A stretch of 9,120 nucleotides of DNA from Escherichia coli (GTDB taxonomy: Bacteria > Pseudomonadota > Gammaproteobacteria > Enterobacterales > Enterobacteriaceae): the NCBI RefSeq assembly GCF_003334335.1, contig NZ_QOWQ01000067.1, one strand, 5' to 3'. Position 1 is the stretch's first letter, and every line of letters starts with the position of its first letter. The notes beneath the pieces were generated by a model. That model made no database searches, was not told where the DNA came from, and saw only the letters and a list, made by a program, of their open reading frames with translations. Shown here one piece after another: positions 8,547 to 8,885 of this stretch. The translations under genes and the position numbers were made by a program.

Positions 8547-8885
8547 TCAGGCCTCCGCCGGTAGCCGTAATCGATTTGCCGAGCCGCAGACGGCGATTTT
8601 GCTTCTGACCACCTCTTTCATGGCGTCCATGCCAACCCGCATGTAAAAGCGCGGATCGTTGCTCTGCTGATTTTCAGCAAACCAAGCTTTGATAGCGTCA
8701 GAGAAGGCGATCTTCAACTCGGTTGCAACGTTGACTTTGCAGACGCCTGGCCCAATGGTGCGACGAACATACTCATCCGGCACATCGCTCGCCCCATGCA
8801 GCACAAAGCGGGCAAAACAAACGGCATAAATTCCATTTGTTTTGCCCGCTTTGTGCTGCCTCACCATTTCTGTCAGATGTTTCAC
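8547..8885 (-). pseudogene. In-frame kbaZ'-'kbaY fusion remnant (tagatose-bisphosphate aldolase non-catalytic subunit N-terminus fused to aldolase C-terminus)
   Basis: From GTG 8885-8883 the minus strand encodes (M)[22 protein letters not shown], which matches the KbaZ/GatZ N-terminus as recalled. After the linker FARFV it continues as [77 protein letters not shown], which matches the KbaY class II aldolase C-terminus. The intervening aga genes are absent. The track ORF extends to an ATG at 8951, but that overlaps an operator-like site. Confidence 0.6.
8798..8859. repeat. Perfect 24-bp inverted repeat with 14-nt spacer (hairpin/cruciform-capable) at the fusion junction
   Basis: Arm 1 at 8798-8821 (GCAGCACAAAGCGGGCAAAACAAA) is the exact reverse complement of arm 2 at 8836-8859 (TTTGTTTTGCCCGCTTTGTGCTGC). 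Spacer is CGGCATAAATTCCA. Checked base by base. Confidence 0.9.

Follow-up and report, generated by a model that had tools for sequence, protein, structure and literature searches.

In a 9,120-nucleotide (nt) stretch of Escherichia coli DNA (RefSeq assembly GCF_003334335.1, contig NZ_QOWQ01000067.1; hereafter referred to as the window), the start of kbaZ and the end of kbaY, two genes of the aga locus, are fused in frame on the minus strand into one open reading frame (ORF). Here we report that this ORF is very probably a non-functional scar within the cargo of a genomic island: a deletion at a short microhomology would have been followed by a template switch that perfected a palindrome at the junction, and the resulting allele would have spread with the island through strains that keep their native aga locus. 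No prior description of a kbaZ′–′kbaY scar was found in the literature searched.

The chimeric reading frame

The ORF runs from the native kbaZ start codon (GTG at 8885) to a TGA stop (8549–8547), and its 112 codons comprise 23 KbaZ codons, four codons that occur in neither parent and encode Phe-Ala-Arg-Phe (FARF), and 85 KbaY-like codons. A first-pass annotation, made from the letters of the window alone, had placed an in-frame KbaZ–KbaY fusion at 8547–8885, and the ORF lies exactly there. Its count of about 23 KbaZ codons was likewise right; a linker and an aldolase tail are also present, although their sizes had been given closely, and not exactly, as five residues and about 75 codons.

The kbaZ′ remnant (GTG and 23 codons; 8816–8885, minus strand) differs from E. 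coli kbaZ at one of 70 nt (98.6% identity). Codons 1–23 occupy 8885–8817, and in a megablast comparison with K-12-type genomes the DNA identity to kbaZ stops at 8816. The ′kbaY-like remnant (85 codons and the stop; 8547–8804, minus strand) corresponds to KbaY residues ~206–284 followed by a donor-type tail, LRLPAEA, and 80 of its 85 residues align with residues 205–284 of E. coli KbaY at 83% amino-acid identity. Both parts are recognized by the NCBIfam profiles as fragments and not as full-length members: ORF residues 1–27 match positions 1–27 of the 428 in the KbaZ profile NF012002 (30 bits, cut-off 707), and residues 19–106 match positions 197–284 of the 286 in the KbaY profile NF009375 (153 bits, cut-off 542). 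Of KbaZ the peptide thus keeps 5%, and of KbaY less than a third; the aldolase barrel cannot be complete, because the N-terminal ~205 residues of KbaY are absent.

A TAA-to-CAA change at 8906 removes an in-frame stop upstream of the kbaZ start, and the frame extends to an ATG at 8951, giving 134 amino acids (aa). This longer form (P0001), which has 270 member sequences, is listed in protein databases under 'class II fructose-bisphosphate aldolase [Escherichia coli]', and the RefSeq annotation treats the scar as two unrelated partial 'class II fructose-bisphosphate aldolase' pseudogenes. The junction is identical base for base in NCTC86, enterotoxigenic E. coli (ETEC) ATCC 43896 and STO_Bone2, and is found in 312 of 5,426 complete E. 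coli genomes; it is therefore real, and neither an assembly artefact nor a chance ORF.

Deletion and probable template switch at the junction

Native kbaZ reads …GCCGTTTGTT-CCGCACATCCGCTG-GTGCTGGAA and donor-type kbaY genes read …CCGCTGGTGCTGCAYGG. The two genes have in common a 12-nt microhomology, CCGCTGGTGCTG, which encodes Pro-Leu-Val-Leu in each and lies at codons 27–30 of E. coli kbaZ and at codons 202–205 of kbaY in at least 11 donor-like genes. The product of a simple deletion at this microhomology was predicted beforehand and then found in a metagenome contig (L037; ENA ERZ27287602, contig k141_26141 of 56 kb; protein P0056). This plain allele reads GCCGTTTGTTCCGCACATCCGCTGGTGCTGCATGGGG ahead of the same malX–PatB–'enterotoxin' genes as in the window, contains CCGCTGGTGCTG once, and shares its left boundary with the window, to which it is 98.1% identical along 5.8 kb. 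Its protein was recovered by a search with the aldolase fragment, which otherwise returned short fragments only and indicated no donor.

We propose that, in a step to which the surviving plain allele testifies, a ~7-kb deletion joined kbaZ codons 27–30 to kbaY codons 202–205 at CCGCTGGTGCTG, giving …AVCSAHPLVLHGAS…, and that it took with it the rest of kbaZ, agaV, agaW, agaE, agaF, agaA, agaS and the first ~205 codons of kbaY. The multi-kilobase deletion scar suggested by the first-pass annotation is thus borne out, with a loss of ~7 kb from within kbaZ to about kbaY codon 205.

The window differs from the plain junction by a single change, in which 14 nt (CCGCACATCCGCTG) are replaced by 11 nt (TTGCCCGCTTT; 8805–8815, minus strand, given in coding orientation) that encode most of FARF. 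None of the homologues examined (25 of kbaZ, 28 of kbaY) contains this block, an exact reverse complement of AAAGCGGGCAA, which lies 27 nt upstream in kbaZ codons 12–15 (8842–8852, minus strand). Native kbaZ and the plain allele both have the AAAGCGGGCAA 11-mer, at an unchanged offset. The chance of such complementarity is 4^-11 = 2.4e-7 per given 11-mer. Native kbaZ and the plain allele already form an imperfect hairpin, with an outer CAGCAC/GTGCTG and an inner AACAAA/TTTGTT stem and predicted energies of −31 and −30 kcal/mol, respectively. In the window allele, the perfect arms are lengthened from 6 nt to 24 nt (8836–8859 and 8798–8821), which together with a 14-nt centre make up a 62-bp near-palindrome (8798–8859), listed by an inverted-repeat search with 30-nt arms that are 93% complementary. 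As RNA, the same segment is predicted to fold with −52 kcal/mol, and 111 nt around it with −54.7 kcal/mol (z = −7.8).

The change therefore combines a pre-existing imperfect repeat, with perfect flanking stems, and a new tract that is the exact complement of the opposite arm. Such a conversion of a quasipalindrome into a perfect palindrome by one complex, arm-templated change is, to judge from the sequence, the signature of a template switch, a class of quasipalindrome-associated mutation that is established in E. coli (PMC7202029, PMC6357072) and whose defining traits include dependence on replication and strand misalignment, with higher rates in exonuclease-deficient backgrounds. From the geometry of the repeat, we suggest that the nascent strand folded back during replication and copied the opposite arm, replacing 14 nt with 11 nt and perfecting the hairpin. 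With a net change of −3 nt, the frame happened to stay open. The island would then have carried the palindromised allele into ~6% of complete E. coli genomes. As the plain form occurs in no complete E. coli genome (best identity to it, 90.9%), deletion, template switch and spread, in this order, make the most economical history.

The window allele resembles the Ripley model and the laboratory E. coli reporters of Lovett (PMC7202029, PMC6357072) in that an imperfect inverted repeat with pre-existing stems was perfected by an arm-templated change. Unlike in the reporter work, it arose in nature and is fixed in a widespread lineage of islands, with its pre-mutation allele surviving in a metagenome, and the change is large (14 nt to 11 nt) and stands beside a deletion junction through which the outer stem grew from 6 bp to 7 bp.

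A single template-switching event could have produced both the deletion and the palindrome, in which case the plain allele would be of independent origin or a later reversion. Synthesis would have copied kbaZ to …GCCGTTTGTT, folded back on the short native repeat, copied 18 nt of its own arm and re-primed on kbaY through the 7-nt GTGCTGC. The 11-nt templated insertion and the 7-nt microhomology at the junction fit such fold-back or serial template switching; however, the plain allele is exactly the product of the longer, 12-nt microhomology. Its independent origin is unlikely, because the 5.8-kb block is shared at 98.1% identity and has the same left boundary, and reversion by gene conversion from native kbaZ would have had merely 6 nt of homology on one side. 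We consider a one-step origin quite unlikely, and retain deletion followed by template switch.

Two further candidate identities of the palindrome were rejected. It is not a known RNA, since Rfam yielded sub-threshold generic or microRNA-like hairpin matches only, and it is not an intrinsic terminator, since the stem is not followed by a T-run and terminator prediction gave nothing on the minus strand.

Origin of the block and its place in the genome

The scar belongs to a captured block with the gene order garD′–agaR–kbaZ…agaS–kbaY–malX–malY–'enterotoxin'–rsmI′. When relatives of the MalX-like protein were scanned, with one genome per species, Enterobacter cloacae, Enterobacter soli, Enterobacter hormaechei, Enterobacter quasihormaechei and Yokenella were found to carry agaR–kbaZ–agaVWEFAS–kbaY–malX–malY–'enterotoxin'–rsmI on the chromosome, so that a kbaY gene beside a malX-like operon is a natural arrangement outside E. 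coli. Window positions 3501–8804 are colinear with the Enterobacter and Yokenella chromosomes at 78–86% identity, reaching ~86% over 5.3 kb in E. cloacae, E. soli and E. hormaechei. In these loci, which share gene order and orientation with the block but are intact, chromosomal and bounded by full-length rsmI and garD, the distance from the kbaY breakpoint to the kbaZ 5′ end is ~7.0 kb. The ′kbaY DNA is 76.7% identical to E. coli kbaY and 85–86% identical to Enterobacter kbaY; the aldolase part is thus not the kbaY of E. coli. No sampled species is closer to the block than ~86%, Enterobacter being the best match; for the rsmI fragment, the best is Kluyvera ascorbata (88.6%).

The block is a mosaic. 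A 1,125-nt stretch of kbaZ′, spacer and agaR is of E. coli type (98.3–98.8% identical overall, 97–100% per 100 nt) and lies between foreign flanks (garD′ at 88–89% and then 80%, ′kbaY at 77%; NCTC86 island, L001 17745–20104, starting at window 8816), and yhaV–prlF is absent between agaR and garD′. A second version of the cargo, described next, has E. coli-type sequence right up to its own, different junction. The simplest, if tentative, reading is that the ancestor may already have been a mosaic, with both deletions removing the internal boundary.

This second version was traced in Nissle 1917, and ~190 complete genomes carry it. The Nissle 1917 island matches in its backbone (a same-family integrase, YfjI, an inovirus-type Gp2 and the attachment repeat) and adjoins dgcT/pgaA, which we take to be serX, partly on the basis of the K-12 map. 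The position of ycdU upstream of serX (PMC3064760) is a further, partial basis for this assignment. The Nissle block (L038 13587–18946) has the same left boundary (window 3357) and 94% identity, but different deletions: 291 nt of kbaZ′ are joined to the last ~350 nt of agaS, running on into the first ~310 nt of kbaY, the final 81 nt of malX follow directly on this kbaY 5′ part, and agaR has a frameshift. Because one captured block shows two different deletion patterns, the ancestral cargo must have held intact genes from kbaZ through malX.

In NCTC86 the block lies ~20 kb from clpA, behind a P4-type tyrosine integrase and the 14-bp serW/serX attachment repeat TGGCGGTGAGGGGG, whose sequence was taken from PMC3064760. 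The repeat stands at L034 44087–44100, between clpA (ending at 43743) and int (starting at 44261), and in Nissle 1917 at L038 5091–5104, between dgcT and int; an integrase next to this repeat on the clpA or dgcT side marks both as serW/serX-type P4-integrase islands. The block thus lies away from the aga locus, contrary to what the first-pass annotation implies. The NCTC86 island exceeds 80 kb, is rich in insertion sequences (IS) and carries iro, afa-type and EspI remnants; a tRNA scan detected no tRNA at its integrase end, and one is expected at the distal end. As in the known serW/serX islands (O157 OI-43/OI-48 and SRL-PAI-type; PMC3064760), the same 14-bp repeat separates clpA or dgcT from a tyrosine integrase, and large size, an abundance of IS and a tendency to internal deletions are shared as well. 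Unlike these, the present island has no ter/ure/iha module in the stretches examined, its cargo being instead the captured aga–malX chromosomal block together with the iro, afa and EspI remnants.

A search of E. coli for an intact progenitor found none, and all 312–314 genomes with the aldolase fragment share one junction; the 80–90% matches among E. coli genomes are further-eroded remnants. Strain DETEC-S792 (L039 16001–16537) has a 537-nt 'enterotoxin' remnant (88.6% identity) in another island, beside a dpd DNA-modification defence cluster, which shows that the cargo has been further dispersed and eroded. A 5.3-kb contig labelled 'MAG: Collinsella sp.' (a metagenome-assembled genome; L006, JAIJJM010000184.1) is 99.98–100% identical to the island block, including the scar, and is almost certainly a binning contaminant. 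The rsmI fragment had also raised the idea of an in-place replacement of native aga–yraHIJK, which is ruled out by the clpA and integrase context and by the separate native locus.

That native locus lies at 3.62 Mb in NCTC86 and reads agaV–agaW–agaE–agaF–nagA–agaS–kbaY–agaB–agaC–agaD–agaI, followed by yraHIJK, an intact rsmI and lpoA. The native kbaZ body, which is absent from the island copies, is present in 5,319 genomes, the same number as have any match to the kbaZ 5′ end or spacer; because the two counts agree, the scar carriers are a subset of the genomes with native kbaZ. In 28 of 28 listed carriers the matches fall in two places per record. These genome counts imply that all 312 carriers keep native kbaZ.

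On the reading to which the first-pass annotation leads, the fusion is the outcome of a deletion in the strain's own aga cluster, between resident kbaZ and kbaY, which would have lost agaVWEFAS, left agaBCD downstream and probably abolished use of N-acetylgalactosamine (GalNAc) and galactosamine (GalN). An in-frame ORF of a KbaZ N terminus and a KbaY C terminus behind an AgaR-controlled region is what such an event would leave. However, the kbaY part has only the 76.7% identity to E. coli kbaY given above; the genes downstream are not agaBCDI but encode a malX-type EIICB of the phosphotransferase system (PTS), a PatB/MalY C-S lyase and a 637-aa secreted 'enterotoxin'; the site is not garD/yhaV–yraH/rsmI but the clpA/serW island; and another, full aga locus exists in NCTC86, for which the reading is already refuted, with the counts pointing to retained native kbaZ in every carrier. 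A deletion of the resident cluster is almost certainly the wrong explanation, and a complete cluster, which that annotation had named as refuting evidence if it adjoined this region, does exist in NCTC86, although elsewhere in the genome, so that the reading is refuted in spirit by its own terms. No loss of GalNAc or GalN use is predicted, because what was scarred is a captured extra copy, and the host's aga locus is retained. Independently of the island scar, the native agaD of NCTC86 (L035 7310–8101) is annotated as a pseudogene with an internal stop, which could affect galactosamine use.

The agaW′–′agaA deletion of E. coli K-12 is a comparable internal, multi-kilobase loss from the aga cluster, leaving truncated gene fragments that are visible as partial PTS IIC and deacetylase pseudogenes; it reportedly abolishes GalNAc use. 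It lies, however, in the host's only aga locus, whereas the window scar lies in a foreign-type second copy on an island with the native locus remaining, and the breakpoints differ, being at kbaZ codon ~27 and kbaY codon ~205 in the window.

Regulation, neighbouring genes and meaning

Several features speak against a function of the 112-aa peptide. Scar and spacer (window 8434–8885 against L037 858–1320) are ~9% diverged between the plain and window alleles, compared with 1.9% for the whole 5.8-kb block, a difference that would fit relaxed constraint on a pseudogene. Furthermore, the plain allele carries a premature stop, and a protein search recovered P0003, a diverged and more decayed FARF-type variant, for which an encoding DNA record was looked for and not found. 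Together with the loss of most of both parent proteins, these observations make the peptide very unlikely to function.

The agaR–kbaZ divergent control region (8886–9120) upstream of the scar is of E. coli type (98.3–98.7% identical to E. coli, ~82% to Enterobacter) and runs off the window end. Three AgaR operator-like sites were found in it (8917–8940, 8999–9022 and 9094–9117; 0.02 expected by chance), scored against the reported AgaR consensus. The AgaR-regulated promoter proposed by the first-pass annotation has thus been kept. The island agaR gene lies just beyond the window end and is full length in NCTC86 (575 bits, cut-off 351). As a side effect, the deletion would have brought the AgaR-controlled kbaZ promoter to ~450 bp upstream of the malX-like operon, and terminator prediction gave no intrinsic site between scar and operon on the minus strand; read-through into the operon, modulated by the hairpin, is possible on this layout.

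One might ask whether selection has acted on the peptide or the hairpin, for instance because the leader of the malX operon gained an element for RNA processing, stability or attenuation. All 312 complete genomes have the palindromised form and no other, the four that were aligned do not vary in it, its promoter, ribosome-binding site and start codon have been kept, malX has no preceding terminator, and the hairpin is very stable. By contrast, the scar diverges faster than its neighbours, both FARF-type and plain alleles show decay, little of either parent protein is left, the hairpin has no RNA-family match, and hitchhiking with the island could by itself account for the spread of the palindromised form. 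Selection on the scar itself is very improbable. A broader regulatory rewiring, in which the internal agaS promoter was lost and the AgaR-repressed kbaZ promoter, with an intact island agaR, was placed before malX–PatB–'enterotoxin', the leader hairpin tuning expression, is also unlikely. If it were true, the island would carry a GalNAc-responsive glycan-uptake module whose 637-aa secreted component comes from an undescribed protein family.

Against a non-functional scar formed by deletion and template switch in island cargo, the following points must be weighed. Parental kbaY codons 202–205 are present in no island copy found, and we infer the kbaY side of the microhomology from relatives and the plain allele. 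The order of the two steps is drawn from a single metagenome contig, and a one-step event or gene-conversion reversion from native kbaZ keeps a small probability. The E. coli-type kbaZ′–agaR patch between foreign flanks does not follow from this history. A native aga locus in the window's own genome is almost certain, on the strength of NCTC86 and the counts. The island was followed for 80 kb, and its distal end, where the second repeat and an intact tRNA-Ser gene are expected, lies further on. Finally, the absence of function in peptide and hairpin is deduced from the decay and divergence described above.

Downstream of the scar, the kbaY–malX spacer (8434–8546, minus strand) is donor-type, being 84–88% identical to and colinear with Enterobacter. 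The malX-type PTS EIICB gene follows (6861–8433, minus strand; for the NCTC86 copy, 722.8 bits against TIGR02004, whose cut-off is 632). The PTS at this place is not agaBCD. A T9 run on the plus strand (8418–8426), which is T8 in NCTC86, ATCC 43896 and STO_Bone2, frameshifts the malX-type gene at codons 3–5; since no other indel distinguishes these 9 kb from NCTC86, the run may be a genuine inactivation or phase-type slip, not an assembly error. Identity of this gene with the pathogenicity island (PAI) marker malX of ExPEC (extraintestinal pathogenic E. coli) was considered and was not established from the papers searched, and we make no claim of it. Next come the PatB/MalY-family C-S lyase gene (5674–6849, minus strand; TIGR04350, 363.7 bits, cut-off 340), which is annotated in NCTC86, and the gene for the secreted protein, annotated 'enterotoxin' or 'alpha-galactosidase' (3771–5660, 629 aa; longest ORF 3771–5684, 637 aa; minus strand). 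The latter has a signal peptide and no Pfam or NCBIfam match. It is syntenic with malY–malX–kbaY and rsmI in Enterobacter and Yokenella, and may represent a so far uncharacterised family connected with the use of amino sugars or glycans.

On the left, the captured block ends with rsmI′ and 3357–3449, and the boundary at 3357 is common to L037 and the Nissle-type copy. The foreign-type rsmI′ 3′ fragment (3450–3704, plus strand, 255 nt) has an internal stop, is annotated as a pseudogene and is 85–86.5% identical to E. coli rsmI, compared with the closer K. ascorbata gene. Beyond the block, a 478-aa hypothetical gene (1855–3291), which is intact in NCTC86, is split into two ORFs, of 338 and 112 aa, by a TGA that results from a G-to-A change at 2871. 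Window positions 1–70 are not NCTC86-like, and the sole genome covering them (strain 300444) has an IS100/IS21-type element there; the gene for a 1,652-aa AAA-domain protein (44–1858) is accordingly IS-interrupted in the window's genome. Neither the AAA-domain gene nor the 478-aa one is present in the Nissle-type or metagenome versions of the island, and the two could be a defence-like pair that was inserted.

Seen within a short window, a kbaZ–kbaY fusion invites the call that aga has been deleted and that the strain is Aga/Gam-negative, which is wrong here, because the scar lies in a second, island-borne copy. Since different deletions erode the captured block in different E. coli lineages, the block could serve to mark serW/serX island lineages. 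The scar is an ordinary pseudogene, and its junction is a tidy natural case of microhomology deletion and quasipalindrome correction. The alleles from before and after a large quasipalindrome-correcting template switch both survive in nature, beside a microhomology deletion, and provide a clean natural example of a mechanism that has mostly been studied with laboratory reporters.

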